From: Mytilus trossulus
Taxonomy: Eukaryota
Direction of reading: 5' to 3'
NCBI RefSeq assembly: GCF_036588685.1
Contig: NC_086373.1
Coordinates: 38,006,001-38,070,000 of the forward strand
Length of the DNA stretch: 64,000 bases
The translations under genes were made by a program, and so were the position numbers. Below the pieces are notes generated by a model. The model was given only the letters and a program-made list of their open reading frames with translations, did not search any database and was not told the DNA's origin. This document shows positions 31,901 to 59,291 of this stretch, piece after piece; position 1 is the first letter of the stretch, and each line of letters starts with the position of its first letter.

Positions 31901-34900
31901 TTAAGATATTATTCATAAAGTGCAGATGGTATTTTTTTATTTTCATTTATTTTCTTAAAGAAATGCAGTACGAAATAACCGTGAACGCATACCCTTTTGA
32001 TGCCGTTGTAGTTTCTTATTACAAATTAGTACATGAATTGCATACAATTTACTTCTATGTGATAAATAAAGATATTTTGTATTGCAATTTTGGAATTGTT
32101 ATGTAAAAAATGATTTTATGCATCCCTTTAGAAGGTTTGACACCTAGTCTCTTTTGAACAGCTTAAGAACAAAGCCCGAAATCTTGCTGAAAGGTAATAT
32201 AAGTCATGTTTATGTAAAATTGTCTCTTGATTGATTTGTTTTGATTTCTTTTAACAATGACTTCACTTTCCAATATCTTTTCAGATTTACTGAATGTTAC
32301 TATTTCTCCAGCTTATACTGATGTCCTTGAGGGACAATCTCAGTTAATCACATGTAATGTAACTGGAATACCGACAGCTACGTCCATTACATGGTTGTTC
32401 ACACCAACTGGTTCTAATCAGTCACATTCCTTAAACATAAGCAATGCAGATGAATATTCTGGTGGCACCATTCACGATCCTTCCTTAACGGTACTAGATT
32501 TTCAATTGTCTGATGGCGGTACATATGAATGTTTTGCTACAAATGCTGTTGGAACAAGCAACAGCTCATCTTCAGTTCTTAGATTCATTCGTGAGTATAT
32601 ATAAGAAATGTCAATGTAAAGTGCTATATCAAATTCATATGTCGTAAAGAAAGGTATTTTACTTTGAACTCATTTCAGAAATCTCAATATATTTGGTTTG
32701 TTTGTCCCTTTTATCGTCTCACCATTACACATCATGTTAGAGAGAGACATTATGACTTACATTAAGTGATCATTTTTTATCTTTCAATCTAAAAAATACA
32801 AAAATGATGATTAAAGATTCTCGTTCCCAAAGACATTCCGATAGAAACAACCAAAGAAGTTTCGATAGAAACATTTTTCAAAGATTATAACAGGTTGAAA
32901 TATCCAGATACATTTCAGGAGTATTAAATCTTTTGAAGTCGTTTATCTAATTTTATGACAATAGTAAAACTGCAAATTTTACACATTTTATTTTGTTCTG
33001 AGCTCTGAATTTATTTTAAAGGGAATTCCAGTGAAAGTTTTACATATTCTTTTTATTTTTTTAGAGCACCTAACATTATCAGTAAATCCGTCAAATGGCA
33101 CTGCTATTTACGGAGACGTCTCGTTCACGATTGAGTGTACTATAATTGTGTTTTTCCGCGTTTCGTTTAGTATAGCGGGAAAATATTGTATTGACGGGTA
33201 CGGTTCGTATGAATATAACATAGGGTCACACTTAGTGACCAATGGGTATACTTTCTGGTAGTAAAGCCTAGGGTCACTTTCTAGCTGTCGTGCAACGAGT
33301 GAACACTCAACTTTAACTTTTGATGCACATGTATAAATGTTGATATTTTTACAGCATTTAATTTGCCAGTACACACATGTTTTATGTCTAGCTGAAGAAG
33401 GTTAAAAATTAGAACATCGGAAGTTGTCAAAAGATGTTATGACCACCAATGACATAGACTTATCCATGTTTTGATTTAGACAGGATCAAGAAATCTATAA
33501 TTTAGATATTTATTTTTCCGAAAGTAGTACAACACGCTGTTAAAATATTACTCATAAAGCGCAGATGGTATTTTTTTTATTTTCAAGTATTGTCTAAAAG
33601 AAACGCACTACGAAATAACCGTGTACGCATACCATTTAAATGCCGTTGTACAGTTTCTTATTACAAATTAGTACATGAATTGCATACACATTTACTTCTA
33701 TGTGATAAATAATGAATAGTTCTATTGCTATTTTACAATTGTTATGTTGAAAATGATTTAATGCATCCCTTTAGAAGAGTTGATGCCTAGTCTCTTTGTA
33801 ACAGTTTAAGAACAAAGCCCGAAATCTTGCAGAAATGCAATATAACTCATTTTTATGTAAAATCGTCTCGTGATTTGTTTGTTATGATCTCTCTTTAACA
33901 ATGACTACACTTTCCATTATCTTTTCAGATTTACAGAATGTTACTATTTCCCCAGCTTATGTTGATGTCCTTGAGGGACAATCTCACATAATCACAGGTA
34001 ATGTAACTGGAATACCGACAGCTACATCCATTACATGGTTGTTCACACCAACTGGTTTTATTCCGTCAAATGTCTTAAACATAAGCAATACCGATAAATA
34101 TTCTGGTGGCACCATTCGGAATCCTTCCTTAACGGTACTAGATTTTCAATTCTCTGATGGCGGTACATATGAATGTTATGCTTCAAATGCTTTTGGAACA
34201 TGCAACAGCTTATCTTCAGTTCTTAGATTTAATTCGTGTGTATTTATAAGAAATGTCAATGTAAAGTATTATATCATATTCATATGTAAAAAAAAACAGA
34301 ATTTACTTTGAATTCATTTCAGAAATCTCAATATATTCCGTTTGTTTGTTCCTTTTATCGTGTCAGTCTAGTCTGTCTACGGCAAATAATGCATAAATCT
34401 AAACAAATTGCAACAGAAATGGTTTCAACAGTTTTATAATACCAAGCATGACACAATCATATATTAAAAGTCTAAAAAAATCGTACGATCGGAAATCCCC
34501 ATTTTGGGCTAAAAACATTAATTTTAACCAAAAATCGATGAAAATTGTGAAGAAAAAAAAAAATCGGAATTTTAGCACTATGTTAGCCAAACAAATGTCA
34601 AAAACGAATTAAGATGACTAAAATAAGTACAAAGAACATTTCCGAAGTAAAATTTACAATCCAGATTAAGAACTTATTGGTAGAATTAACCCTTTTAATG
34701 ATAAAATCACAAAAAAATGCAAAAAAAACGATATATTCGAGATTCATATATGGCTGTTTTTAAACGTTTTATTTTGAAGGCAGCTTTAAACTAAAAACAT
34801 TAAACACAATTATTTACAATTATTTGCGAATAGGAAAAAGAAAACAAACAGTAATTTTATTGAAAATCTTTTTATCTATCATCGAAATTAGCTCAAAATT

Positions 34901-37900
34901 ACCCCTCCCCCCAAAATAAAAATGAAATAAATTTCTAAATAAAATGTATTAATGTTAGATTTGTTACAACATTCATTGAATTAATATCATAAACTGCCTA
35001 AACTGTTCAATAATTGATTACTTTGTTTTAACTTGGTTACTTTTGTTATCATCAAAAAGTATTAGAATAATAAATACAATTTCTGAAAAATTTATCTTTG
35101 AAAATATTTGATTTTGTTTTAATTTAACAAAAAAACAGACAATTTTTATATAAGTCTTCCTAATGTCTGGTTAAATGTCTCTGTAATGTACATGCATATT
35201 GATGCATTCACATATCGTCAAGTTCGGCGGCTTCTGTAATGTTACTTGTATTGGAACAATTCATTCCCCGACATTCCCCACATGCTGGGGAACAGTCTAT
35301 TCCGTGTTTGCGACATGAGCATCGTTTTGTGTCACAATTCAATTTGCAATTACATCTGATTATCCTAAGAAGCTTTTCGGGAGCCGATGGTAGTAATGCT
35401 CTAATTGGAAGCAATTTGTTGTCCTCAACATGCCAACCCCAGTCCTCTGGACCGTTGCTTCTAGGTTTTTCAAAACATCCGATTCACCCGCTTCTGAAGC
35501 TGACAGCTCTACAGAGGATAATTGAGAATATAATTCATCAATTTCCTTCATTTCAGTTGTTTGAAGGGTTGAATTGGGTTCTTCCAAAAGTTTAGATACG
35601 TCAATATTAAATATATCTGCAATCAACAAACAATAAAGTGCTGTATCCACCAACATGTGACCTCTAAACGCTCTAGCTACAGCTTTTCCGCTAAGGATAT
35701 GCGTGAATGCATTCGGAGCGTATATGAGATCTAACATCTCTTTCAAACCAGTATTACTCATAAGATTCCCTATTGAGCCGAGGAAGCTCATCTCTGTGTG
35801 GAATGGCCATAATCGTAAAAACATAGACTTCAAGTTGCTTCCTGGATTTTCGTTTTCAATAATTGATAAAGCTTTCGAATACAGAGGTTGATCAAAAGTC
35901 AAAATCGCTGGTATGTCATAACGCTTTGCTTGGTTGGCGACGAAGTTCAATGTAGAATAGATACATGTCATGTCCGAAGCATTCAAATCTATCATGAAAC
36001 TGATGATTTTCCTGGGTAGTCTCCCGTCTGAACCATCTGCATGAAGCCAGACCACATTGGTATTGGAAACTTTAAAGGCCAAATAATAACCGACAGCAGA
36101 TCAAGACGGAAAGTCTTATCCAGTGTGTTTAGGTTTTTTAACTCAAGCATAACTTAATTCAGCCATACGATCTGATTGAGGTTTGTAATATTTGATCTCT
36201 ATCTTTGCTAATGCCTTCATTTCATCAGTAGAAAAAGCTATTCTAGGAATGGGTTGTGTCTCTTCGTACCAGGCGTAATTCCAGCTATTATGCACATGCC
36301 ATGAAAAGTGTTGAGGTCATCTATCGTTCTTGTGTTGTGGTCAACGTTATCTGCTACAAATTGTACAAAGCTGTTGCTTATATCGCCTGGAAGGTCAACT
36401 CCTTGTACAGCTACAGTACTTGATTCAAACTTCTGGACTTCATAGTATGAGGAACAAAATCCTAAGCTGTTCAATGTGGACACAAGAAATCGTGAAGCGG
36501 AGTTGTGATGCACCTGTACTCCTAGACCGAGTTGAAGCGGTGTTATAAGTGCTCGAGGTCGTGAGGCTTGCATTACTGCTTGTCCTATGGAAGCTATTTT
36601 CACCGATGGATCTTTCTCAGAAAATATATTAGAAAGAAATGATAGCAGGCTTTCGGGTAAGTATGATAGATTATTATCAAATGATGCAATGTTGGCTGGA
36701 GTTGGATAGATAGACTTTGTGGTATTTACAGATCGGATGTCGCTTTTTATCAGTTTGACAGCTGCTCTGATTGTACGAATCACATAAAGTTTAACTTAGG
36801 GCGAAGAGATGAGTATGCGAGTTAACCATGTATCTATCTTTTATTCTTTTATAAAATCATATGGTCGCTAACAATCGATTCTCTACAAATAAAGAATAAT
36901 TTTACATAAGTAAAAATACATAAATTATAATAAGATGCACATGTTTAAGTATTCACATTAAACTAAACAAACAATAAAAACCATTTCATTCATGTATCAT
37001 AATTTCTCTCGTAAGTTAAATTACGTTTAAAATAATAATTAAAAGTTACGCATATTTCTAATAAATAGTACACAATGTTTTCTCTCTTTAAATAAGTTTT
37101 GATATAATAAAAAGATAGTATACATAAAAAGTTTCTTACCAACTTTAATCTGTCTAATAAAACAATGTGCATCCGTATGTTATCAAAATAAAGTCTAGAC
37201 GACGAAGCGCACATCAAAGGCGTAACGTCATAAAACAGAAACGGGAAAATGTGTTGTTCAAAAGAGCGCAACGTTACATTAGCGCTTTCATAAATAAATA
37301 GTAAAAACTGTGTTTCTTATTCTTACAAGAATAAATGAATATGTTAGTTAAACATTTAATAAATAATAAATTTATATTTAAAATTTGAATATTTCAAATC
37401 TTACACTCCCCACAATGAAATTACCAAATAATTTCTTAATACAGTTAGAAAAATATATTACAATTTTGTCACCAATAAAAAATAGTTCTATTTAGAACAC
37501 TCGAGTAAGCATAGTTTATTTGTGTCTCAAATCTGTGACTGACTAGTTTTGACCACACAGCTACGGATATGACCATGACGGCTCCTTGTGATCTCGACTA
37601 TTCTACCCGTTATCCTCTCTGTATATCATCAGCAACTAAAACAATATCGTCTATTTCAACATCTTGTTGTTCCCTCTGCCATTTGCTTCTTTGCTGCGGC
37701 TTTCTTTCCCCTCCTTTTGTTTCCTCTTTTCTCGCTTTTTTGGATGGAGACCTTGCCCTTTTCTTTCCCCTTCGTGGGTTCTTGGAACGAGCACGTTTTG
37801 CTGCCTTTCCCGGGGAGGCGAATGCTGACCTGCTCCTGCTCCTTCTGTTGGACATGGACTTGGATGAACGATGAGTTGGGCTTGGCATCCGTCTTGCTGG

Positions 37901-40900
37901 GTGATATAAGACTGACTCCGTCATTTTCATAGCCTCTGTATCATCTGTAGACAAGCAATTCTTATCTTCTCGTGCTCTATCATCATTTATAACATTTGAC
38001 GCATGCATATCTTCAATAGGACCACGAATAGCCCATCCGAGGCGTGAGCGAATTGCATATGGTTGGTTTTCGTTACCGGACCTTACTTCTAGCGGAATGT
38101 GAGCGTTAGGTGAATCTGTACCTATTAACAACATGACCTCGGTTAAATCAGTAGAGGGTATCTGTATATCGGCTAAATACGGCAATTTTCTTATATCTAC
38201 ATTTTCTGCGGCAGATCGAGCAGAAATTGGAAGCTTCTTAACTGACCAGACCTTTTTTAACGACACGTTATCATTTCCGTCAATAGCTTTTACTTGTAAG
38301 TCAACTTCTTGACCGTGAATTGTACTACCAGAAGAGCTAACAGTAGACATCTCGAAAGTGACCGGCTTGCTGGCTATATTTAATTTCTGAAGTAATCGTT
38401 CATCACATAAAGTTTTATCTGCTCCGTCATCTAGCAAGGCAAATGTTTTGCAAGAGTTACCGTTCTGACCCTTAACGAGGACAGGAACAATTCCTAAACA
38501 GTTCTTAATCATAGAACCTTTAGTAGCTGCGCAATTTACTGACTGCTGAGTAGCTGCATGATCAAAACCGGGCTGAGACCAACTATGCAATAAAATATTA
38601 TGCTTAACATTACAGTCAGATACAGTGCATGCTTTTGATTTTCTACAATTGTTAGCAAAATACTTCCCTTTTAAACAATTATAACACAATTTTAACATGC
38701 GTACTAATTTATACCTATCATCTAAACTCATTGACTTAAATTTGCTACAAGATGTCAAATCTACACATGTACCTGTACAACATTTACATTTTTGCTCATA
38801 TTTAGCTGTGTTATCTAAACTTTGAGTACTTAACGTAGAAACCTTACTATTAACTGTATCATTATTATGATGTTTACTTGTAAAAACCCTATTATCAGTC
38901 TTGTTCTGATTGTTTTCTCTACAAATATCGTACCCATACATAGAACTAGCAATGCGTGATTTTTCGTCTACAAATTTTGCTAAGTCAGAAAAACGAGGTT
39001 CTCTACCAGACTCGCTAATTGAATGAGCAATATCGACCCATCTTGTTCTCATATGCATTGGAAAGCGTTTAACAATACACCTTAAATTTTCAGAATTATC
39101 AATATCTGAATTAAAACCTAACTGAGACAATGTGATTTCACATTTTTGCATTTCTAATGCCAATTTAGATAAACCTTCAATATCTGACGCTTTAATCTGA
39201 GCGCCGTACACTAATTTTTCAATAAATGATCTAGCAATTACATGTGGCCTACCGTATCGGGAGTACAATATTGCCCTAGCACGTTTGTAACCCTCATCAG
39301 AATCTAATAATACACAATCTTCTATACAACACTTTGCTTCACCTCTACAGTACTGAATTAAATAACTCAGTCTCAAACTATTATCACTTATTCTACCTTC
39401 AATGTTTGTCTCAAAGTTCCGTATAAACTTACTATAGTCTAACGGAGTTCCATTAAAAGTTAATAATTCTGGTTTTGGCTAATTAAACCCTTCGTGAAGT
39501 GTAGATGCTAGGCGTTGAAAAGCCGAATCTATGCTGGAAACACTTACATCCGAAAATCCAGACTGAGCACTGATTCCCTGTGTACTGTTATTAATGTTCA
39601 TCTTTGGTTTATCAGTTGCTGCAGTTTGTCCGGAAAGAGAGTTCATTTTAATACACTTTTCACTCGCAGGAACAGAGCTCTGTAATGTTTGCGAGACTGT
39701 TGCGAAATGTTCCGAATGTTCACGATTCCACTGGTATTATCTGTGTCTTCTTCCACTGCTTCTTGCCACACTGATTCTTCGATATTTGCCTCTTCCATCT
39801 CGGATAGTTGATTAAATACCTGTTGTCTAAATTTAATTTCTATTTGTGCACGCTCTAGTTCATGCTGTTCTGATAATTTCCTGAGTTTAAGTTCTGCGAT
39901 TAGCCGCTTAGCTTTGGCACTGCGAAATCTAGATTGTGATGAAACTGAAGATCGTGAACTCAAACTGCTTTCAATTGAAACTGTATCACTTTCTTCGGGT
40001 ATTTCCTCTTCATGCGATTTTTCACTCGCGATATACTGAGAAAATCTATCCCGGAATTCTACAAAGTTCTCATGACAACGTTCATAGTTCACTTCCAAAT
40101 TTGCTATAACTTCTGATTGTGTACACAAATCTAAACACTGTAAGTGTGCTAACTTAAATTGTTCAAACCTTTCACATAACTTTGAATATAATTGTTTTGC
40201 ATGTTCCACGTTCTCATATGAAATTAAATTCTTCTCCAATTCTTTGTACAATTTAGTAAGCTGCGCTAAATTCGTACTACGAGTCCGTTTTGCATCACTG
40301 AAGTCCAGACAGTCTTCTTTCCGTCTATCGGTAGCCATTTTTTTAACAAATATTCAAAATTCGGCACAATTTTAGAATTTCCTCCTCTCCAGAGTTGAGA
40401 ATTGTACGAATCACATAAAGTTTAACTTAGGGCGAAGAGATGAGTATGCGAGTTAACCATGTCTCTATCTTTTATTCTTTTATAAAAATCATATGGTCGC
40501 TAACAATCGATTCTCTACAAATAAAGAATAATTTTACATAAGTAAAAATACATAAATTATAATAAGATGTACATGTTTAAGTATTCACATTAACCTAAAC
40601 AAACAATAAACACCATTTCATTCATGTATCATAATTTCTCTCGTAAGTTAAATTACGTTTAAAATAATTATTAAAAGTTACGCATATTTCTAATAAATAG
40701 TACACAATGTTTTCTCTCTTTAAATAAGTTTTGATATAATAAAAAGATAGTATACATAAAAAGTTTCTTACCAACTTTAATCTATCTAATAAAACAATGT
40801 GCATCCGTATGTTATCAAAATAAAGTCTAGACGACGAAGCGCACATCAAAGGCGTAACGTCATAAAACAGAAACGGGAAAATGTGTTGTTCAAAAGAGCG

Positions 40901-43900
40901 CAACGTTACATTAGCGCTTTCATAAATAAATAGTAAAAACTGTGTTTCTTATTCTTACAAGAATAAATGAATATGTTAGTTAAACATTTAATAAATAATA
41001 AATTTATATTTAAAATTTGAATATTTCAAATCTTACACTGATCAAAGCTCTCTTTTCGTCATCTGGATTTAAATCGTTTGGTCTCTGATAATAGTCCTGA
41101 AGAATACAAGTCACTGTTTCACGTAGAGTTACAACACTTTTTCTACCTGGTATGTCTGTAATAATGATTTCGTCTCCAAAATGTTCCAATCTTTTCTTTA
41201 AATACATCTGACTATAAGCATTCCCATCACACATCTCGTCCAAGATCTGATATGGAAATCTGTTCGTCGTCATGATGTTTAAGGAAGTCGACTATTTTGT
41301 AGAAGCCGTCTTCTTGCAAAGTTGGCCTTCCTCTTTGGTTTTTCAGGCTTTGCGTCTGGTGATATGGGAGAACGGAATACAGGAGTGTTTTTGCACGTGC
41401 GGAAGTTTACACTACATGCCTGGTGATAAACAGCATCCGCTGCTTGGAGGTCGCTTACGCTCTCCAGTCTTCCGCGAACCTCATCTGCCCAATCTTCATT
41501 CCGAAGATCACAAGCATCTTGTATGCGACTCTCAAAATCATCAGTTCGAACCTGAAATACATTTTTGTCTTTTTTCTTGGAGTCTGTTGCTTCATTTCCA
41601 CAGAATAAACAATGTTGTTTAAAATCAAAATGGGACTTTGATCGTAATTTTGGAGTATTTGTATTAATTTCTCTCAGAACAAGTTTTTCTTTTTTGTATG
41701 TCTTTATGTCATTTGGATTGGTATATGTTTTCCTGCAGAGTTGATGGACAAAATTACCCTTATGCGGACAAACAGTCTCCTCTTTCCTGGCTAGCTTTGA
41801 TGATTCCAAGACAACCTTTTTGTCGCAATTTGATCAGTGTTGTTTGGTGGTCATCTTTTAGGCACACAATACATTTCTTCATAGTATAGATGTAGCTGAA
41901 AAGAAATAGTACACAATCATTTGTTGTTACATATTTAATTTTTATATTTGTCATATAACATATCAATACACATTAAAATATTATTCAGAACAACAAATAT
42001 AAACAACATCGACTCTTAATGAATAATGTTTTCTTGTCCGTGTGATGTTTCTTTTTTTAGTGTGTCTATACACTGTAATTCATTTGTCCATTTCTCAACT
42101 TCTTATGAATTCTAGCACTGCTGAAGATAATGAATTATTTGAAAAGTGTCAAAAAGGGCGACAAGAGAATCAATAGGCTTAAATCGCGTCCGAGAAAACG
42201 AAAAGGACATTAAGACAAACAAGACAAACTATACAAAGTACACACAGAAACGAGCATCTTGAACTTAAGAAGTACAATTTTATTGTAAAGCATTAAAAAA
42301 AGTATACTATGTTCGATGTTTTCCCTACTTGGAAATTTTCGATTGTGTTTTATTGTAACCTATTCCGTACATTTGTTTAGTTGACTATTCATTTTGAATT
42401 TGGTTTGAATTGACTTTTGATGGAACAAGATACGCAATCAAATATTTTTGACACGACTGTGAAAAAATACTTTCAATGAAATAGGCAATGCAGAAAAATA
42501 TAATATAGTACCTGATTTAGAAATTATTCGTGTGCTTAACAATTAGCACAGTGACTGTGGTTAGCTCCAATAAAATCATGACGCTAAATCGGACATAGGT
42601 TTCTTCAAGTGAAAGCTGAAATAGAATTACAAAATAGTTATTTTCGACAATAATTCATTAAAAAAGGAAGGAAACAATTATTTAAAATTATTTATTTGAA
42701 GAAAACGCAATAGAAGATAAGAATAAATGCTTTGGCTATAGTAATTAGTTCAAAATCGACAAAATTGCAATTTTTACTGTCCATTTTTGTTAATTTGGCG
42801 TTCCATACTTTTTTGTTTCCGTTAGGTACGAGTCTTACTACGTCCCTTTAAATTATTTTTATTGTTAAATTTTGGACTTTATTAATTGAAATTTAATTGA
42901 TTTTATGTAAAGGTAGTTGATTTTATTTATTTTCTTTGAACTTAACAAAAATATAGTGATCTTTGTCGTTTGACCTGCGTCAAGAACTTTCGTCTAATTC
43001 ATTTCTTGACGCATTTCCGAATATCTAAATACACGTAAAACATAAGTGTATGTTAAAAAAACACTTACCAGCATACTTTTATAATAACATAAATTTATGT
43101 AAGCGATTCTTTCAGTGATATCATCTTCTCAGTTGGTTTCTATAAATTCACATATGTAAGAGTCTTCTCCCTTTGTCAATATGGCGGACCATTTCTGACA
43201 TGAATCGGCAGGCACGTCACCGATATTTTTATTTTCAATTTTCACCGATTTCCGACCGTACGATTTTGTTAGACTTTTTTAACGGTAATGTTCTATGATA
43301 ATCTCATATGATATATAAAAAATCTTTTCTGTTGCAATTTGTTTAGGTTGATTCTGAAGACAGACTAGACTACTACACATTATGTCAAAATGAGACATTA
43401 AGACTTACATTAAGGTGGTATGGGAGTCTAAAATAAAAATGATAGAATTTGTTCATACTCTGCCAAAACTTAGTATCTATTGATATATGTTTAAAAATAT
43501 AATAAAATTGATAGGTCACCGTGCATTTTCTCAAGCTACAGGACGTGACAAAATGATAAATTTTGTATGGATTATACAGGGAAAAACACCATTTTGTGAT
43601 TAGAAACTAAACACAATGATAGAATTGTTAAATACTTGAGGAAAAGATAGCTTTCTGACAATGCTTTGAGAATATCAAAAGAAAAGATAGGGTCACCGTA
43701 CGTTTTTTCCGGCTAAAATACAAAATAGGAAAAGTGCATAAGAATCCTTCAGAAAATGCACTGTTTTAGAGTTACCTCCCCTTGAAATGCCAATTAATTA
43801 ATTTTTTTAAACAACCAAAACTAATCAACATTTGCAAAAATATTAATATTTGTAGGTTATATTCTTATAAATTGGTTCTTTTAAATGAAAATCACATTAA

Positions 43901-44926
43901 ATATCTGCATTCCTGCATCACATTTTGCTAACTTGATAAAAAATCTGAACCTTTGGTTCTCTGTTTTTTACAATCCAAGATGGAGGAAGACACCCCTACC
44001 ACCTTAAGTGATCATCTTTATCTTTCAATTAAAAGAGACAAAAATGATGGTTAAAAATTCGGGTTTCTAGATATATTCCGATAGAATTGTTATAAAAGTT
44101 ACTAAAATTATAATTTTATACGCCATACACGCGTTTCGTCTACATAAGACTCATCAGTGACGGTCAGATCCAAATAGTTGGAAAGACAAACAAGTACAAA
44201 GTTGAAGAGCATTGTGATAAAAGGTTGAAAAATCCAGATAACTTCAAGGAGTTTAAAGAATTCTGAAGTAGTTTACCAATTTTAATGATAAAATATCTGA
44301 AATAAATTCTTATAATTTATAAGTCACAGTTTATACTGATAGTGCACCAAGGTAAGTACTATACATGACCACATTTTTGAAGTAGATATAAAATAAACAA
44401 GTTCTATTTCATTTCATTGCTTATGTGGACCTAATTATGTAAATCCAAATCACTTGTCGAAAAATAGACAATACATAATGAAACGTTTATTTTGAACAGA
44501 TTTATTATAAAACTGCAAATTTTAAATAGATTTTTTTGTTCTGAGTTCTGAATTTAATTTAAAGGGAATTTCTGTGAAAGTTTTGCATATTTTTTTTATA
44601 TTTTAGAGCTCCTAACAATATCAATAAATCCGTCAAATGGCACTGCTATTTACGGAGACGTCTCGTACACAATTGAGTGTACTATAAGTGGCATTCCCCA
44701 GGCTACATCATGGTCTTGGTTAAAGAGACTAATCACAGGCGGCGAATTGACAACAATATCTGCTGGAAGCAAATATACTATAGTAAATTCTGCCACTCTT
44801 CCGCATTTAACTATCAACAGTATAGTTGAGGATGACGAACAGGACTATTTTTGTCAAGGGACCAATGATGCAGGAACACAAATCAGTACAAGTGCAAGGC
44901 TAATTGTTAATGAAGATCAGTTCTAA
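431..44926 (+). CDS. Multi-exon gene (5' end outside window): FCGBP/zonadhesin/mucin-like VWD-C8-TIL module followed by ~21-22 tandem Ig-like domains
   Basis: Exons 431-675, 1614-1936, 3020-3294, 7840-8051, 8887-9049, then Ig exons A/B. All have AG/GT boundaries, and junction phases (0,2,1,0,1,1...) join into one open frame. The 3' end is uncertain (B11, A12 and B12 are damaged). Confidence 0.8.
1614..1936 (+). CDS. Exon: C-terminal half of VWD domain
   Basis: ccttAG acceptor; VNGIAIELP...VQFDGDH...KLTGLCGNCNGNKQDD (VWD GLCG motif); donor AA|gtaaga, phase 2. Confidence 0.88.
2365..2953. mobile_element. Non-autonomous TTAA DNA transposon (Kolobok-like MITE)
   Basis: TTAA|GGTGGTATGG...CCATACCACC|TTAA; a second, inverted copy lies at 43414-44003. 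RR...YY termini with TTAA TSD fit Kolobok. Confidence 0.85.
3020..3294 (+). CDS. Exon: C8 domain
   Basis: caacAG acceptor; C..L...SPFKIC...CEFDVC...HCPTLQHTAYECSQHG..VKWRNSNIC; donor C|gtaagt, phase 1. Confidence 0.88.
4077..5265 (-). mobile_element. Tc1/mariner deletion derivative
   Basis: TA TSD and ~40-bp TIRs (TACTGAGTGCCAATGAAAACGCA...). Decayed transposase on - strand 4963-4277: MPGLSDNQR..LGM, GSVND, QDRYI, ALREKWNKFP..I...S.PRRC....RG.NT, with stops and frameshifts; no DDE core found. Confidence 0.85.
5286..7713 (+). mobile_element. Non-autonomous Helentron (HINE/DINE-1-like) with internal ~500-bp tandem repeats
   Basis: 5' TTTTTAGCTCACCTG..GTGAGCT palindrome, (GTC)n microsatellite, repeat starts at 5401/5914/6414/6927/7428, 3' subterminal IR AGGTGAGC plus hairpin AGGCTC-TTGA-GAGCCT ending CTTGTT. 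Confidence 0.85.
7840..8051 (+). CDS. Exon: TIL (trypsin-inhibitor-like Cys-rich) domain
   Basis: ttacAG acceptor; PLNC...SCTNTCENP...CQDPPVDGCTCPD...GGKCVTIDNCG; donor GCA|gtaagt. Confidence 0.88.
8245..8435 (+). mobile_element. Degenerate SINE-like repeat (Nin-domain-like core)
   Basis: GGATCTACCTACTCTCCCGGGCACCTGAGAACATCCCGGTTTTGG...GTTGCTCAGTCTTTA resembles the molluscan Nin-SINE core as I recall it; unverified. Confidence 0.45.
8887..9049 (+). CDS. Exon: Cys-rich TILa/VWC-like module
   Basis: ttgtAG acceptor; VGDSYPKGNCTVSQKC...ICDVDELCTANDIGLYDCTKNS; donor A|gtaagt, phase 1, compatible with Ig exon A1. Confidence 0.78.
9120..9375 (+). repeat. Dispersed repeat with a related copy at ~2035-2140
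   Basis: Shared motif CTCCGAG..AAATT...AAAGTCCCTAATCA.AT..CAAAATCAAA...ATGGA.AA.AA.TGTCATA.T.CTGA.TT.GTA in both places. Confidence 0.6.
9894..10654 (+). mobile_element. Non-autonomous Helitron
   Basis: A|TCTATAATACTAAAAT 5' end, 3' GC hairpin (ACCCGCGATGGCACGGGT) then CTAA|T; internal ~420-bp-spaced duplication; homologous 3' end at 47142-47242 ending CTAG|T. Confidence 0.7.
12465..12770 (+). CDS. Ig-like exon A1
   Basis: tttcAG/GTgagt, 306 nt, phase 1-1; ITC...ITW...PSLTV...DGGTYECFATNAVG (I-set-like). Confidence 0.9.
13237..13545 (+). CDS. Ig-like exon B1
   Basis: ttttAG/GTcagt, 309 nt, phase 1-1; TIECTISG...WSW...HLTINSI..DDEQDYFCQGTNDAG. Confidence 0.9.
14432..14737 (+). CDS. Ig-like exon A2
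   Basis: Copy of A with intact splice sites (LDFK variant). Confidence 0.9.
15206..15514 (+). CDS. Ig-like exon B2
   Basis: Copy of B with intact splice sites. Confidence 0.9.
16400..16705 (+). CDS. Ig-like exon A3
   Basis: Copy of A with intact splice sites (LDFQ). Confidence 0.9.
17175..17483 (+). CDS. Ig-like exon B3
   Basis: Copy of B, TIGC variant, intact splice sites. Confidence 0.9.
18369..18674 (+). CDS. Ig-like exon A4
   Basis: Copy of A, same LDFK variant as A2. Confidence 0.9.
19145..19453 (+). CDS. Ig-like exon B4
   Basis: Copy of B with intact splice sites. Confidence 0.9.
20340..20645 (+). CDS. Ig-like exon A5
   Basis: Copy of A, same variants as A3. Confidence 0.9.
21115..21423 (+). 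CDS. Ig-like exon B5
   Basis: Copy of B, same TIGC variant as B3. Confidence 0.9.
22310..22615 (+). CDS. Ig-like exon A6 (core Trp->Leu)
   Basis: Copy of A; TGG>TTG at 22417-22419. Confidence 0.88.
23086..23394 (+). CDS. Ig-like exon B6
   Basis: Copy of B; donor GTtagt. Confidence 0.88.
24279..24584 (+). CDS. Ig-like exon A7
   Basis: Copy of A with intact splice sites. Confidence 0.9.
25054..25362 (+). CDS. Ig-like exon B7
   Basis: Copy of B (KYIIV variant). Confidence 0.9.
26247..26552 (+). CDS. Ig-like exon A8
   Basis: Copy of A (TIQNP variant). Confidence 0.9.
27022..27330 (+). CDS. Ig-like exon B8
   Basis: Copy of B (QGAND variant). Confidence 0.9.
28348..28653 (+). CDS. Ig-like exon A9
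   Basis: Copy of A with intact splice sites. Confidence 0.9.
29123..29431 (+). CDS. Ig-like exon B9
   Basis: Copy of B (WLKR, NNIV, DEKD variants); donor GTtagt. Confidence 0.88.
30316..30621 (+). CDS. Ig-like exon A10
   Basis: Copy of A (TPTG, QSH, IHDP variants). Confidence 0.9.
31092..31400 (+). CDS. Ig-like exon B10
   Basis: Copy of B; donor GTtagt. Confidence 0.88.
32285..32590 (+). CDS. Ig-like exon A11
   Basis: Copy of A, same variants as A10. Confidence 0.9.
33065..33261 (+). pseudogene. Truncated Ig exon B11
   Basis: Acceptor and first ~27 codons (to TIECTI) are present, then unrelated sequence from 33146. The frame stops at TAG 33259-33261. Confidence 0.85.
33929..34235 (+). 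pseudogene. Degenerate Ig exon A12
   Basis: Diverged A copy: first Ig Cys lost (ITG), 1-nt insertion just before the donor (307 nt), donor weakened to GTgtgt. Confidence 0.8.
36772..37405 (-). repeat. 3' LTR
   Basis: Direct repeat of 40403-41037; about 6 substitutions and 1 indel counted by eye. Confidence 0.95.
37490..40338 (-). pseudogene. BEL/Pao gag-protease polyprotein remnant with integrase C-terminal tail
   Basis: Coiled-coil gag N-terminus; PKPELLTFNG/RLSYLIQYC.GEAK/RYG (DUF1759-like); CYNCL and C..CNVKH..LLH knuckles; protease ALLDDGAD and LGWAIRGP; tail QRSKW..DIVLV..RSCVVKT..KLCLLE. A frameshift near 39650-39700 and an in-frame TAG at 39479-39481; RT, RNaseH and integrase core are absent. 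Confidence 0.9.
37686..37913 (-). pseudogene. PL-III: Captured copy of sperm protamine-like protein PL-III (phi-1)
   Basis: ATG at 37888: MPSPTHRSSKSMSNRRSRSRSAFASPGKAAKRARSKNPRRGKKRARSPSKKAR. This closely matches the Mytilus PL-III N-terminus as I recall it, and a shifted frame gives the C-terminal RRGKKAAAKK. Confidence 0.85.
40403..41037 (-). repeat. 5' LTR
   Basis: Direct repeat of 36772-37405, upstream of the gag ATG at 40338. Confidence 0.95.
43414..44003. mobile_element. Kolobok-like TTAA MITE (inverted copy of 2365-2953)
   Basis: TTAA|GGTGGTA...TACCACC|TTAA; the other array units show the empty site GACTTACA-TTAA-GTGATC. Confidence 0.9.
44121..44162 (-). ncRNA. Minimal type I hammerhead ribozyme motif (Penelope/retrozyme-type repeat fragment)
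   Basis: Minus strand CGTCA-CTGATGA-GTC ttatgta GAC-GAAA-CGCGTG-TA-TGGCG: complete core, stem I CGTCA/TGGCG, stem II GTC/GAC, short quasi-palindromic stem III. Confidence 0.7.
44607..44926 (+). CDS. Ig-like exon B12 (donor lost; possible terminal exon or pseudo-exon)
   Basis: Intact acceptor and Ig motifs; GGAG|GTCAG has become GAAG ATCAG; reads through to TAA at 44924-44926. Confidence 0.65.
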
Positions 44927-47242: not shown

Positions 47243-48157
47243 TACTTCTAATAAAATCCCTTTGACATGATATAGTTAACTGTTTACATCCACTTCATTT
47301 ACACTTTGACGAATAGTTATTTCATAGGTATTTAAGCCACATTATTTTGATATAGTCAGGTAATTTAAAAGTGAGTGTTGTTTGTGTTTTGTGTTAATTA
47401 TTCAATTATCTCACTTGAATAGACTGGAAAACACGTGTTATATTTTATTTGTATTAACTGAAGTTACCACCCATTATTATGTTCATTTGAATTATTTCAA
47501 AATATTTGAAAAACAAAACAGTTTTTACTCTATTAAACTTATAAATTCAAAAGAGCGATAAACTATTTATATACAAATACAATTAACATATCAACGAGTT
47601 CCTTCCCAAAAGTTAAATTGCAAGACTCAGAAATAAAAAACACCGAAAATTGCATTATATTTTTATTTAGATAAAATGATTCATTTCAGTGTGTAGGGGT
47701 GCGCTGTTACCTAATGAAGGGAACTGAAGGTTAGGGCGCCAATCCTTCCAAAATTCCGGCAGGCAGTAGTGTTTTTGGCCGATGGACTGTATTAATATAC
47801 AGGCTTCAGCGCCGACGGAGGAGAACCTGATACTGCTTTAGCCGTGCACCTCCACAAGGTGTAATTTCTTCTGGCTTGGAAAAAATTATTTTGGAACTGA
47901 TGTCTTCCTATCTTCAGTCATTCACTTTATTTTTGAAACTCTCTTTCAATTTTTTTTTTCTCACCGGCTATGTTCCACACTTTCTCTTTCTCTTACTCTA
48001 ATTTTTTTATTTCATTTTCTAACACTGATTTTTTTCCTTCGATCTCTTTCATACTCTCTTTTACTTTCTCTCATACCCTGTTTCTTACTTTCTCTCACAC
48101 CCTATTTCTTACTTTCTCTCACACAATCTTCCTAACTTTCTCTCAATGTCTAACAGT

Positions 48158-49182
48158 GTGAGAGAGAGAGGCAGTGTGTGTGTGCGAGAGGGAGCTACTG
48201 TGTGAGGGAAAGAATGTGTGTGCGTGAGGGAGAGACTCTGTGAGGGAAAGAATGTGTGTGCGTGAGGGAGAGACTGTGAGGGAAAGAATGTGTGCGTGAG
48301 GGAAAGAATGTGTGTGCTTGAGGGAGAGACTGTGTGAGTGAAAGATTGTGTGAGGGAAAGAATGTGTGTGCGTGAGGGACAGACTGTGTGAGGGAAAGAA
48401 TGTGTGTGCGTGAGGGAGAGACTGTGTGAGGGAAAGACTGTGTGAGGGAATGAATGTGTGTGCGTGAGGGAGAGACTGTGTGAGGTAAAGAATGTGTGCG
48501 TGAGGGAGAGACTGTGTGAGGGAAAGAATGTGTGTGCGTGAGGGAGAGACTGTGTGAGGGAAAGAATGTGTGTCTACGTTAGGGAAAGACTGTGTGAGGG
48601 AAAGAAGGTGTGTGCGTGAGGGAGAGACTGTGTGAGGGAAAGAATGTGTGTGCGTGAGGGAGAGACTGTGTGAGGGAAAGAATGTGTGTGTGTGAGGGAG
48701 AGACTGTGTGAGGGAAAGAATGTGTGTGCGTGAGGGAGAGACTGTGTGAGGGAAAGACTGTGTGAGGGAAAGACTGTGTGAGGGAAAGAATGTGTGTGCG
48801 TGAGGGAGAGACTGTGTGAGGGAAAGAATGTGTGTGCGTGAGGGAGAGGCTGTGTGAGGGAAAGAATGTGTGTGCGTGAGGGAGAGACTGTGTGAGGGAA
48901 CGAATGTGTGTGCGTGAGGGAGAGACTGTGTGAGGGAAAGAATGTGTGTGCGTGAGGAAGAGACTGTGTGAGGGAAAGAATGTGTGTGCGTGAGGGAGAG
49001 ACAGTGTGAGGGAAAGAATGTGTGTGCGTGAGGGAGAGACTGTGTGAGGGAAAGACTGTGTGTGTGAGGGACCGACTGTGTGTGAGAGTGAGTGCGAAAA
49101 AGTGTGTGATAGAGAGAGATAGAGAGAGTGTATGAGAGTGAGACAGTGTGCGATAGAGAGCGTGAGAGAGAGAGAGAGAGAG
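48158..49182 (+). repeat. 38-bp TGAGGG-rich minisatellite flanked by GA/GT microsatellite
   Basis: Unit GGAGAGACTGTGTGAGGGAAAGAATGTGTGTGCGTGAG (18+20-nt sub-units), more than 20 copies. Confidence 0.95.
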
Positions 49183-49919
49183 TCATGCTTTGATGATTTC
49201 CTATATAGTCAACAAAATGTTTCCCTACCCCTGGGTCTGTCTGCATGTTTATAGTTCTACGTTATAGTACTAATACTGGCTTTTTCCCCCTCCATTACTT
49301 CAAAGGTCCTAGATAGTTGGGGCAATATGCGCAATTGTTTCTCCATAGGCCGTAATGGTAACGTTTTCTTCTGTTGCTCAGCCAATATCGTAAACTTGTA
49401 CATGTATGATGGCTTGTTTCGAAGCTGAGACATTTTTACATATGTGGTTAAATTATCGGGGTACGAAGTGTGATTCATTTTTCCGTAATTTAGCAAACCC
49501 CGAATATCCTTTTGCGATGTGGCTCCTCATGGTAAAACATCCCGTTTTTAACACAATAAGTTCTTTGAAATTTTAATACTTTGAACACATTTAATAACTC
49601 CATGGTTTTTACACATTTATTCTGTGTTCCCTTACTTTCTAAATTAACACTAATGGTTCAGCTCAGTCATTTGTTTATCATAGAAATATGTCAAATATCA
49701 CTACACAGAGATTTTTTGTTCACAAGTGACTTTTGTGTTCCTCATTTCAAGGCGCATTAGGGGTATTGTCCCAGTTGCTTATCTGTTTATCGTACGTTCT
49801 ATCACTGGCTTTTTTACTGAGACTAGAGATTTCATGTTACAAACCTGACCTAAAAACACATGTCCTATTAGAACCTATAGTTTATATAGACTTTGCATGG
49901 TAATAAAGATTTATATATA

Positions 49920-57038: not shown

Positions 57039-57845
57039 TAGTTAATGCCGAGTCCATAAGAAAATAACAATTCGTCTAAAGGCTTTTCTTGTATTTGACA
57101 AAGATGTAAAAGAACCGAAACACTTACAGTGGTATATAACTAATACAGAGGAAATAAAAATAACAGTCAAATCCATCTATAAAGGTCAAATTTGCCTGGC
57201 GGAGTTGAAACATATATATTATACATTTGATACTTTTAGAATATATTTAACTATGTAAAATACAAAACGATGTTATTTGATTTTGGCAAATTTATCTAAA
57301 AGTATACTTGTTTTAAGTTGTTTTTTTAAGGTCATACGAAATCGTCATAAAATAAAATATTAATTTGTAATCCATTTTACTGTTAAATAATCCAGTTAAA
57401 CCTTAATCCAGGAGAATGGATATTTAAAGGTATATAATATACGCGTAACATACTTTTGAATTGGTTACTTAATTTCCCCTGTATAGAAATATGTGTACTT
57501 AAAACCATTTAAAACCCGCGAGCGAAATAAATTACTTGAAGACAAACAGTCATTGCCAAATTTTAAACGGGTGTTCAATAGGACTATTATCAAAATAGAA
57601 TTACTCAGAGTCTTTTTAAACCGAATTCAATGATTAAAAGTTGAAGTTCTTCAATTTTGGTGTATACATTTTTAATGACACCTATGAATGGATAAAGGAG
57701 TATTTATTATGTGAACGTGACGTCGAAGATACAGTTTATTATACAGTGATTTACATTTATACCTTCTCGTTCGTTTTTTGGAGAATAAGTTACTGTGGCA
57801 GACCGGTGGCCGCTTACCGGAAGAAAAAGAAAAAATTGTTGAACA

Positions 57846-59291
57846 ATGCATGTGATCAGCCAAACCCAAACACATCAGCCAAGGGGTTCAATTGCAGTAC
57901 CAGGGCGAGACGGGTATCTCTCGCCGGATTACCATCACCATTCGCCACATTCGCCGCATTTTTTGCGAAAACATCGCCGGAATGCTTCATGTGATTCCAG
58001 ACGGTCCGAACTGATTCCTGAAAGAAGTGAGCCTGATACTGACCACGAATCTGTTTGTTTGATAGAAAAGCCAGAGTTCCTGGAAACTGCAAGCTTAACT
58101 GATGGTCATAATTGCAAACAAGAAGAATGCGAAAGGATAATTATCAATGTCAGTGGTCTCAAGTTTGAAACACAACTTCGAACACTCAATAGACTTCCGA
58201 ACACCCTTCTAGGAGATAAATTTAAAAGAGAATATTACTGGGATGCTAAGCGGAAGGAATTTTTCTTTGATCGACATCGACCAAGTTTCCCCGCTATTTT
58301 GTATTTTTATCAAAGTGGTGGAAGGCTTTTAAGACCTATTGAAGTTCCAACTGATGTTTTTCTTACCGAGTTGCAGTTTTTCGAACTTGGGGCCACTGTT
58401 ATAACTGCTTATAAGGAATCTGAAGGTTTTTTAATTGAAGATACTGGACACGAAATAATGCCAAAAAATCCTCTTCAAAGAAAGATCTGGGAGCTTTTTG
58501 AATACCCAACGAGCTCAATACTTGCTAAAATTTTTGCATTGTTATCCGTCATTTTTATAGTTGTTTCTGTTGTCAATTTTTGTGTGGAAACTTTACCTCA
58601 GTATGCAAATATGGGATGTACAAATGTTACACAGATTCATCCTGGAAATGTAACCTCTCGTAAAGAAGTTCCTGTCTTTGTGCAGCCCCTTTTTATCATA
58701 GAAGCAACATGCATGTCGTGGTTCATTATAGAGTTAATATTTAGAGTCATCAGTTGTCCTTCTAAAGTACTTTTTATAAAAAATTTCGTCAACTGGATTG
58801 ATATAGTTTCAATCATGCCGTTTGTTGTATCGTTAGCCATGCTGTTTATAACTGGAGAATGCGAGGGATCGTCGAAAACTGGTGCTATATCGGTTCTTAG
58901 GGTTCTGAGAGTTGCAAGGATACTAAAATTGAGCAAGCATTCTGAAGGACTCCAACTTCTAGGTAAAACTTTAAGAGACAGTGTACAAGAACTTATGATG
59001 TTCGTTCTTTTCCTTGGAATAGGAATTGTTATATTTTCAGGTGCTATTTTCTATGCAGAACTATCTCAAGAAAACACGCACTTTACTAGCATTCCCGGGT
59101 CGTTTTGGTGGGCAGTTGTAACCATGACAACTGTCGGGTACGGAGATATGTATCCGGTTGGCATATTTGGAAAGATTATTGGCACTTTGGCAGTTTTGTG
59201 TGGATTGCTGTCAATTGCATTACCAGTACCTGTAATCGTTACAAATTTTAGTAACTATTACCGAGCATCTACGGGTAGAGGTGGCTTTTGA
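57846..59291 (+). CDS. KCNA: Voltage-gated potassium channel, Shaker/Kv1 subfamily (single coding exon, 481 aa)
   Basis: T1 domain (IINVSGLKFETQLRTL...FFDRHRPSF.AILYFYQSGGRL.RP), IWELFEYP, S1-S6, S4 RVLRVARILKLSKHS, FWWAVVTMTTVGYGDMYP filter, PVPVIV hinge. Confidence 0.97.
   Translation: MHVISQTQTHQPRGSIAVPGRDGYLSPDYHHHSPHSPHFLRKHRRNASCDSRRSELIPERSEPDTDHESVCLIEKPEFLETASLTDGHNCKQEECERIIINVSGLKFETQLRTLNRLPNTLLGDKFKREYYWDAKRKEFFFDRHRPSFPAILYFYQSGGRLLRPIEVPTDVFLTELQFFELGATVITAYKESEGFLIEDTGHEIMPKNPLQRKIWELFEYPTSSILAKIFALLSVIFIVVSVVNFCVETLPQYANMGCTNVTQIHPGNVTSRKEVPVFVQPLFIIEATCMSWFIIELIFRVISCPSKVLFIKNFVNWIDIVSIMPFVVSLAMLFITGECEGSSKTGAISVLRVLRVARILKLSKHSEGLQLLGKTLRDSVQELMMFVLFLGIGIVIFSGAIFYAELSQENTHFTSIPGSFWWAVVTMTTVGYGDMYPVGIFGKIIGTLAVLCGLLSIALPVPVIVTNFSNYYRASTGRGGF

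Follow-up and report, generated by a model that had tools for sequence, protein, structure and literature searches.

A PL-III gene fragment in a BEL/Pao retrotransposon of Mytilus, probably captured from mRNA by reverse transcriptase template switching

Introduction

How does a piece of a sperm-chromatin gene come to lie inside a retrotransposon, by which route was it taken up, and what has become of the hybrid since? These questions are raised by a 64,000-nucleotide stretch of Mytilus trossulus DNA (contig NC_086373.1, positions 38,006,001 to 38,070,000; the window below), in which part of PL-III is embedded in an LTR element. The original prediction, made from the sequence, was that reverse transcriptase (RT) jumped onto the PL mRNA at a microhomology, copied to its 5' end and jumped back.

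LTR-mediated retroposition of host genes has been published for flies, mosquito (a BEL element), fish, chicken and mouse (Tan et al. 2016, PMC5131818). The cases described there include mosquito ENSANGG00000011308 in BEL18_AG and fly CG17604_r. We found no report of PL-III capture in mussels in the open-access mollusc literature, a scope outside which subscription journals mostly fall.

Results

A young, non-autonomous BEL/Pao element

The insert resides in an element with the following parts:

41037-36772, minus strand: non-autonomous BEL/Pao element of Mytilus, delimited by an LTR pair and a target site duplication (TSD)
40403..41037, minus strand: 5' LTR (TGT...ACA), 635 nt
36772..37405, minus strand: 3' LTR, 634 nt
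41038..41042, minus strand: upstream copy of the 5-bp TSD ATCAG, at the LTR edge
36767..36771, minus strand: downstream copy of the TSD ATCAG, at the LTR edge
37914..40338, minus strand: BEL/Pao gag (DUF1759, Cys/His knuckle), aspartic protease and linker
37984..37985, minus strand: site of an in-frame 69-nt (23-aa) deletion in the BEL linker, a separate event, with a 2-nt overlap
37491..37685, minus strand: remnant of the BEL integrase C-terminal tail (DUF5641)
37406..37415, minus strand: short purine-rich tract preceding the 3' LTR, likely the PPT
34466..34497, no strand assigned: inverted-repeat arm of a larger element that hosts the BEL insertion (partner arm 43247-43278)

As in other BEL/Pao elements, the LTRs run from TG to CA and are flanked by a 5-bp TSD. 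Compared with each other, they differ by six substitutions and one indel (K2P 0.0095, that is, 1%), so this copy is young. No tRNA genes were found in the window. In the window copy, the gag-protease frame is interrupted twice, near 39700 by a frameshift and at 39479-39481 by a stop; it is 97.6-99% identical to the unbroken 911-aa protein P0052, and the window ORF is 85-87% identical to full BEL/Pao proteins of M. edulis over residues 300-530. The fused reading frame ends at a stop (37612-37610) within the integrase tail remnant. The 69-nt linker deletion is absent from the older hybrid forms P0040, P0053 and P0061, the evidence including record 19 of run X17.

The parent-type protein P0036 contains DUF1759, RVT_1, Peptidase_A17, Integrase_H2C2 and DUF5641 in a single gag-PR-RT-RH-IN frame, and the parents thereby resemble the mollusc BEL/Pao elements of PMC6238403, with the same domains including the integrase zinc finger. 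Unlike those elements, the derivative lacks RT, RNase H and most of the integrase, about 3 kb having been replaced by 216 nt of PL-III sequence: between the two junction motifs, P0036 has 997 aa and the window 216 PL-only nt.

A piece of PL-III with a deletion

The coding part of the insert consists of three features:

37729..37888, minus strand: PL-III codons 1-53, in frame with gag-protease
37728..37729, minus strand: point at which about 103 nt of the PL-III middle are deleted, with a frameshift
37686..37728, minus strand: what remains of the PL-III C-terminus, ending with the last sense codon and read outside the PL frame

Judged by its matches to the published PL-III qPCR primers (PMC9138527, Table 1), the insert can be identified as PL-III: the primers match at 18/20 (37903-37884) and 20/20 (37751-37770) positions, and no further primer site with up to four mismatches was found in the whole window. 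Codons 1-53 include 20 Lys/Arg, with a net charge of about +20. A transcript matching the insert, an RNA contig of 356 nt (16-nt leader, 303-nt CDS and 37-nt 3' end), encodes 101 codons, close to the 102-residue span of M. californianus PL-III (PMC13113032). Protein searches with the PL piece returned no named PL-III; none of three candidates matched, and the one further protein found was repetitive and unrelated.

The RNA contig confirmed that the middle of PL-III had been deleted with a frameshift, as predicted. It contains 127 nt opposite 18 nt of the window (37711-37728), where other hybrid copies have 6 nt more than the window; the family deletion is therefore about 103 nt (1 mod 3, a frameshift). 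The window copy has lost 6 nt beyond this, at 37709 in the C-terminal remnant, where other copies keep them. Over 176 nt, the RNA contig differs from the window by 24 letters and 9 gaps, and there are differences at three places under the reverse primer; the contig is therefore probably from a different Mytilus species, and the deletion may be a few codons longer or shorter. With its middle deleted, its C-terminus out of frame and neither promoter nor 3' UTR, the insert reads as a captured fragment and not as a PL-III gene. Hallmarks of L1 activity are absent as well: the insert stops before the PL stop codon and has neither an A tail nor a flanking target duplication.

The 3' junction

37686..37696, minus strand: 3' junction, 11-nt microhomology CAGCAAAGAAG common to both parents

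Parent-type BEL contigs match the window from the tail to 37696, with loose ends there in all four runs compared, and a variant BEL contig departs at 37693 in two of the four. The 356-nt PL RNA contig matches down to 37686, without a difference in 37686-37710, and then continues into the stop codon and 3' UTR. The stretch shared by the two, CAGCAAAGAAG, thus amounts to 11 nt. In the PL frame, bases 37697-37686 encode A-A-K-K, and in the BEL frame Q-Q-R-S, which upholds the predicted overlap of about 11 nt in two frames; its exact extent is 37696-37686, the first G originally quoted (37697) being PL-only. A microhomology shared by both parents, which the prediction called for, is thus present. 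The chance of at least 11 shared nt at a random junction is 3-4e-6. An exact 11-nt word is expected 0.45 times between a 340-nt mRNA and a 5.7-kb element, so the match is likely the best available site and not an unusual sequence. One further contig (X5 record 27) reaches 25 nt beyond 37686, the threshold for bridging being 31 letters.

The 5' junction

37913..37915, minus strand: 5' junction TCA, present both in a BEL Ser codon and in the genomic PL copy; first half of the Inr-like TCAGTC
37889..37913, minus strand: 25-nt PL-III leader, with a 19/25 ungapped match to the replaced BEL sequence

Parent BEL proteins and contigs match up to 37913. X1 record 7, a DNA contig whose upstream part is unrelated, matches up to 37915, which means that the PL gene also has TCA and that 3 nt are shared (chance about 0.055). 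The claim that this junction falls on an initiator-like motif holds in part: TCAGTC does stand at 37915-37910, with its A 25 nt before the ATG at 37888, but the BEL linker M-E-S has TCA as well, as its Ser codon. The motif occupies 0.16% of window positions and is carried by the genomic PL copy; we call it Inr-like after the Inr consensus. Upstream of the A at 37913 there are no PL-specific bases, and the insert gave no sign of PL promoter or other untranscribed DNA. AGTC stands twice at the junction, at 37917-37914 and 37913-37910. The RNA contig stops at 37904, which lies 9 nt inward of the junction, and has no loose end there; this hint comes from a single study, below the bar of two. Only contigs were compared, and contig ends cannot show where a transcript starts. 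The contig rows listed covered the leader except for positions 37897 and 37891. On sequence grounds, a PL-III cap site at the junction (~37913) is plausible. X14 record 14 (37780-37933, 15 gaps), which is either an older hybrid or a gapped PL alignment, was left out for this junction.

A bare run-off at the mRNA 5' end is not borne out, given that the leader and the BEL sequence formerly in its place agree at 19 of 25 positions, in an alignment shifted by 4 nt relative to the crossover. This match is a new observation, missed in the original prediction. At 15 other offsets, the leader and BEL agree at 2-9 of 25 positions; among 127,886 other 25-mers of the window, none reaches 19 and one reaches 18, and the binomial probability of 19/25 is 2e-7 to 3e-6, for an ungapped test that was designed after an earlier local alignment had been inspected. 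When the part with the 4-nt offset is left out, the local alignment of the 30 nt inside the junction with the parent's next 30 nt ranks in the top 0.4-2% of BEL windows and is attained in 9-72 of 5000 shuffles, which is moderately unusual only. Translated in another frame (YITQQDG), the leader finds its best match at the junction itself (SITQ[E]xG) in 4/4 parent polyproteins of 1572-1722 aa, which are close kin, the match having first been spotted by eye. The version of the leader in the published primer matches BEL at 18/25 (a hand count), the hybrid siding with BEL at one base. Given the 19/25 match, the jump back was likely guided by homology too.

A hybrid family in three species

The junction peptide occurs in 13 of 72 fetched proteins (8 from M. 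edulis, 4 from M. galloprovincialis and 1 from M. trossulus). Four of the 13, from two species, form a single unbroken 911-aa Gag-protease-PL frame, and two (P0040 and P0071) shift frame inside PL. All four proteins fetched from M. coruscus are not hybrids, two of them stopping short of the junction. Hybrid contigs were present in three of four runs compared, out of 24 listed, and came from three studies. As regards transcription from the LTR, X17, the one run recorded as RNA, yielded no hybrid contig, and X5, which has the hybrid, has no library type on record. The contig depths of hybrid and parent-type (75.6/13.4, 26.8/19.5 and 35/10.7) are depths and not copy numbers; they seem to point to a derivative more numerous than its autonomous parent. 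Scans of viral and metagenome contigs for DNA patterns produced 0 matches, and a parent-protein scan of metagenome contigs produced 47 pattern matches, 0 of them confirmed.

The hybrid proteins combine, in mosaic fashion, residues of the parent type with residues of the hybrid type; P0061, for example, equals the parent P0036 at all 20 informative sites to position 794 and then switches. Such mosaicism would be expected from repeated co-packaging and could also reflect gene conversion. Identical junction peptides in three species, together with the window copy's own TSD and near-identical LTRs, suggest that the hybrid likely had one origin followed by secondary spread.

Discussion

A double template switch as the probable route

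We consider it probable (roughly 0.7) that RT switched template twice on co-packaged sperm PL-III mRNA, likely once in the history of the family, and that the product was then spread in trans by full-length relatives. Abundant PL-III mRNA would have entered the particle of the element in male germ cells. Minus-strand synthesis from the 3' end would have left the BEL RNA within the 11-nt match, just before the PL stop codon. RT would have passed over about 103 nt in the repetitive middle of PL, during capture or shortly afterwards, because every hybrid protein has this deletion. It would then have come to the 5' end of the mRNA, no more than 2 nt from 37913. Much as in strong-stop transfer, the new copy of the leader would have paired with the similar stretch of BEL linker but slipped by 4 nt, which would have duplicated AGTC and brought PL into the gag-protease frame. 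Keeping its LTRs and a translated gag-protease frame, the hybrid would have multiplied and gone on recombining with its parent, with later losses of 69 nt of linker and of the end of the tail.

The predicted RT switch is thus supported in part, by the 11-nt parental microhomology and the lack of a PL promoter; the junctions alone do not prove an RNA template, because an event at the DNA level would likewise be guided by the 19/25 match. No intron is present in the 128 nt of genomic PL that were compared, so that intron loss gives no proof of an RNA route here. The homology lies 3' of the crossover with the PL version kept, which would be the polarity expected when a finished minus strand anneals to an acceptor. 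Against the switch, a start at the A combined with the best-paired register predicts one AGTC, and two are seen. Two copies would arise more readily from a donor with TC at -2/-1, in which case transcription began 2 nt further up or the donor was DNA.

If the donor was DNA, a genomic BEL copy or its cDNA would have been broken and then mended by copying the PL-III gene, with invasion at the 11-nt match, re-annealing at the 19/25 match and later retrotransposition of the product. Both homologies would serve this route equally well, TCA, which spans the presumed +1, is also present in the genomic PL copy, and the intronless 128 nt do not tell against it. We nevertheless regard it as unlikely, since nothing obliges a DNA donor to end as close as 2 nt to an Inr-like motif and 9 nt to the end of the RNA contig, and the homology begins exactly at the A and ends at the ATG; flap trimming, we infer, would favor the best-paired register without the AGTC duplication. 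The donor is, moreover, a very abundant germ-line mRNA: the depth of the RNA contig is 357.6, against 5.6-8.9 for BEL contigs in the same run, although depth is a poor measure of expression.

Two-step transduction, the model for retroviral oncogenes, would place a BEL element upstream of PL-III; a deletion in the DNA, spanning the 19/25 match, would then have joined gag-protease to PL, and a single switch of RT at the 11-nt match would have supplied the BEL 3' end. It would account for the difference between a long imperfect and a short perfect junction, and a single RT switch suffices. We think it quite unlikely, as it requires an earlier BEL insertion beside PL-III, of which none was seen, and makes the match to the Inr-like site a coincidence; the 733 nt upstream in the genomic PL contig do not match a 641-nt stretch of the window, the sole stretch compared. 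Still far less credible is the insertion of a PL-III retrocopy, generated by a LINE, into a BEL copy that was intact, with later deletions of neighboring pol. Retrocopies often begin near the cap, as this insert may, but it has no poly(A), 3' UTR or target duplication, both of its ends lie on sequence shared with a parent, and the BEL frame is discontinuous by 997 aa (of P0036).

Comparison with known captures

Much in the reading as a double template switch onto PL-III mRNA has counterparts among the cases of Tan et al. (PMC5131818). There, too, a piece of host mRNA replaces part of an internal ORF, microsimilarity is found at both switch points (here 11 nt at the 3' end, and 3 nt plus the adjacent 19/25 at the 5' end), both LTRs are kept, and non-autonomous secondary spread follows one event. 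The microsimilarity in those cases has a median of 6 bp, compared with 11 exact nt and the 19/25 leader match in the mussel hybrid; their switch points fall anywhere in the mRNA, whereas the mussel leader match starts at the Inr-like site; and their proof of the RNA route is intron loss, in contrast to the intronless 128 nt of genomic PL here. The mussel family further differs in its mollusc host and in its at least 13 recorded copies in three species.

Maize Bs1 is likewise an LTR element with captured host coding sequence and switch points shared across related species (PMC5131818), but it combines pieces of three genes in 1-5 copies, whereas the mussel hybrid carries one sperm-chromatin gene in frame behind gag-protease. 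Mouse IAP 1-delta-1 is similarly a non-autonomous deletion derivative that keeps one fused frame; its fusion protein aids transposition in cis, and the derivative makes most new insertions (PMC6466679). It arose by a pure 1.9-kb deletion and contains no host sequence, unlike the hybrid with its PL-III.

Has the protamine been co-opted?

It is conceivable, although we doubt it, that the host protamine has been put to use: a Gag-protease-PL protein would be made and would act in cis to bind or condense the element's nucleic acid in male germ cells, hence the spread across the blue-mussel complex, with the host mRNA 5' end handled like the R region in strong-stop transfer. For such a role speak the 4-nt offset and the 103-nt and 69-nt deletions, which all leave one frame (about 1/27 if independent and unselected), the four unbroken 911-aa frames in two species, and hybrid contig depths above those of the parent-type. 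Against it, three of four listed differences from the genomic PL copy lose Arg or Ser (R6H, R12M and S23F), and the frame shifts of P0040 and P0071 (2/13) fall inside PL. Selection that keeps a frame open whatever it encodes, as in IAP 1-delta-1, would account for the frame without a PL function.

Implications

In mussel ecotoxicology, the PL-III qPCR primers of PMC9138527 would yield a 153-bp product from the captured piece; with 18/20 and 20/20 matches to the hybrid, hybrid DNA or transcripts could be counted as PL-III. Few natural captures of mRNA by an LTR element are resolved as well as this one: the two parents still exist and are on record, as are the derived family and an older form of the hybrid, so that the order of events can be read. 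It extends LTR-mediated retroposition to molluscs and to a sperm-chromatin gene. Mytilus PL genes were reportedly described as multicopy and dispersed by Heath and Hilbish in 1998, and the hybrid family may be the explanation of such older reports.

The hybrid element and its insert

The element that carries the insert is an LTR retroelement of 4266 nt, single-copy within the window:

41037-36772 (-), non-autonomous BEL/Pao element
41037 towards 36772, in order: gag and protease, PL-III insert, integrase-tail remnant
37913-37915, approximate 5' junction, with the PL ATG at 37888
37696-37686, 3' junction

Its LTRs (TGT...ACA) differ by six substitutions and one indel (K2P 0.0095), the target duplication is the 5-bp ATCAG, and a frameshift near 39700 together with a stop at 39479-39481 disrupts the gag-protease frame of this copy. 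Window proteins match records from Mytilus edulis, M. galloprovincialis, M. trossulus and M. coruscus. Full-length M. edulis relatives have RT, Pao peptidase/RNase H region and integrase domains; in the full-length relative P0036 the junction motifs stand 997 residues apart, a span taken up in the window by 216 PL-only nt.

Judged by its sequence, the insert is a PL-III fragment. The PL-III qPCR primers in Table 1 of PMC9138527 match it at 18/20 and 20/20 positions, with no second site in the window at up to four mismatches, and would amplify 153 bp of the captured fragment (37751-37903). The examined text of PMC7915165 gives no PL-III primers, and protein searches with the insert returned no named PL-III record. 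One RNA-run contig of 356 nt, made up of 16 leader nt, 101 codons and a 37-nt 3' end, aligns to the insert as two pieces. The PL-III middle, 127 nt in the transcript, is reduced to 18 nt in the window; hybrid contigs from three runs are 6 nt longer there, so the family-wide deletion is about 103 nt, which bears out the deletion with a frameshift in the original prediction. After this deletion the PL sequence is read in the same frame as the integrase tail.

The two junctions

Contigs from four of the 24 listed runs were aligned on 37480-38120. Because parent-type BEL contigs match the window no further than 37696 in all four and the PL transcript fits as far as 37686, followed by its own stop codon, the two parents have 11 nt in common (37696-37686); variant parent-type contigs diverge at 37693 in two runs. 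The predicted overlap of ~11 nt thus holds in length, but its quoted first G (G37697) is found in PL only. P0036 reads YLPTL-QQRSKW, its tail identical to that of the window. Given that at least 11 shared nt at a random junction have a chance of 3-4e-6 and that the expected number of 11-nt words common to the two parent molecules is 0.45, the 3' join took about the best exact match available.

At the 5' junction the parents read M-M-E-S-S-I-T-Q-E-D-G and the window M-T-E-S-V-L-Y-H-P-A-R-R-M-P-S-P. Parent contigs match up to 37913, with the loose end visible in two of four runs, which assigns the TCA of TCAGTC to a BEL Ser codon. An 855-nt low-depth DNA contig, taken for a genomic PL copy, matches 37788-37915 before diverging from the compared stretch, so that TCA would be common to BEL and PL; the predicted upstream site at TCAGTC, a motif we take to be initiator (Inr)-like, is retained as a location, though its first three bases belong to both parents. 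The RNA contig stops at 37904 with no loose end. AGTC is present twice in the hybrid, and it is these four extra nt that bring PL into frame with gag-protease.

An alternative frame of the PL leader reads Y-I-T-Q-Q-D-G, whose best match in all four parent polyproteins is the residues right at the junction. In DNA, the 25-nt leader (A37913 to the base before the ATG) is identical to the parent at 19/25 positions, ungapped, 4 nt off the crossover register; 15 alternative offsets give 2-9 matches, and among 127,886 other window 25-mers none reaches 19 and one reaches 18. The binomial probability is 2e-7 to 3e-6 (0.001-0.016 across 5700 sites) in a test devised after the match was seen, with one contig as parent DNA; a plainer local alignment places the leader only in the top 0.4-2%. 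This homology to the replaced BEL linker is a new observation.

The hybrid family

The junction peptide occurs in 13 of 72 proteins compared, eight from M. edulis, four from M. galloprovincialis and one from M. trossulus; the main protein cluster has 28 members, 15 of them among the matches listed. Four proteins are a single unbroken 911-aa Gag-protease-PL-tail frame. All hybrid proteins are predicted gene models, and translation is not implied. The common form has a linker 69 nt shorter and an early stop. P0053 and P0040, in which neither the linker nor the integrase tail is shortened but both junctions and the middle deletion are already present, are an older hybrid form. Parent-type and hybrid-type residues are mixed in several copies, including that of the window, and such mosaics point to probable repeated recombination with an autonomous partner. 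P0061, P0066, P0067, P0070 and P0038 are parent/hybrid residue mosaics along gag-protease.

Hybrid contigs occur in three of four runs, from three studies. Contig depths (hybrid/parent-type) are 75.6/13.4, 26.8/19.5 and 35/10.7, and that of the genomic PL contig in run X1 is 6.95, depth not being copy number. Mytilus PL genes are reportedly multicopy and dispersed, a view attributed to Heath and Hilbish.

Surroundings of the element

12269-34311 (+), tandem array of a ~1969-bp unit, about 11-12 head-to-tail copies of 96-100% similarity; introns and two exon-like frames for immunoglobulin domains in every copy
44559-44858, additional exon-like Ig copy, past the nested transposons
34466-43278, larger element with 32-nt inverted arms, in which the BEL copy is nested; disrupted transposase-like frames at 35208-36795 and 41010-41833 that end in a Cys-rich motif
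2361-2957 and 43410-44007, two copies of a ~600-nt repeat in inverted orientation, 40 kb from each other and 88-97% alike
48143-49261 (-), strongly G-skewed repetitive open frame, 372 aa
51546-52989, 20-nt-period repeat region with many inverted arms
57843-59291 (+), 482-aa single-frame voltage-gated potassium channel-like gene (BTB_2, Ion_trans)

The array at 12269-34311 is, by its predicted frames, a tandem array of Ig exons, homogenised and of great length. The transposase-like frames have no Pfam match, and their Atlas look-alikes are unnamed eukaryotic clusters, one with DUF6589 on 23%; the larger element presumably resembles Academ-type DNA transposons.

Origin of the hybrid

We favour, with a probability of roughly 0.7, a double RT switch on PL-III mRNA co-packaged with BEL RNA in male germ cells, the cap position being presumed. 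At the 11-nt match RT would leave the BEL RNA and copy the PL-III mRNA through to its 5' end, whereupon the copied leader would anneal to the look-alike BEL linker. The homology would then lie on the side already copied by the minus strand, as in strong-stop transfer. The predicted jump onto PL mRNA gains from the microhomology in both parents, but the AGTC duplication fits poorly with an mRNA start exactly at A (37913); a donor with its end 2 nt upstream of this A, or a later frame-opening change that was retained, fits better.

Repair at the DNA level is an unlikely source of the hybrid, and two-step transduction, behind which stands the oncogene-transduction model, is improbable. We also doubt that the fused protamine tail was co-opted by the element to act in cis, since three of the four listed differences from the genomic PL copy are drift of the PL piece off Arg/Ser and the frame is shifted inside PL in 2 of 13 hybrid copies.

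We found no report of PL-III capture in mussels in the mainly open-access papers searched; the word 'protamine' is absent from the examined text of the mollusc BEL/Pao paper (PMC6238403), and the capture is not described in that of PMC13113032, supplement text included. The retained fusion frame recalls IAP 1-delta-1, as far as the consulted part of PMC6466679 describes it. The hybrid has the same architecture as LTR-mediated retroposition, which, in the sections of PMC5131818 consulted, includes a mosquito BEL case and has secondary spread on record. The presence of PL-III sequence within a BEL element is real, and the mussel case is an unusually well resolved example of this known LTR-mediated capture architecture.
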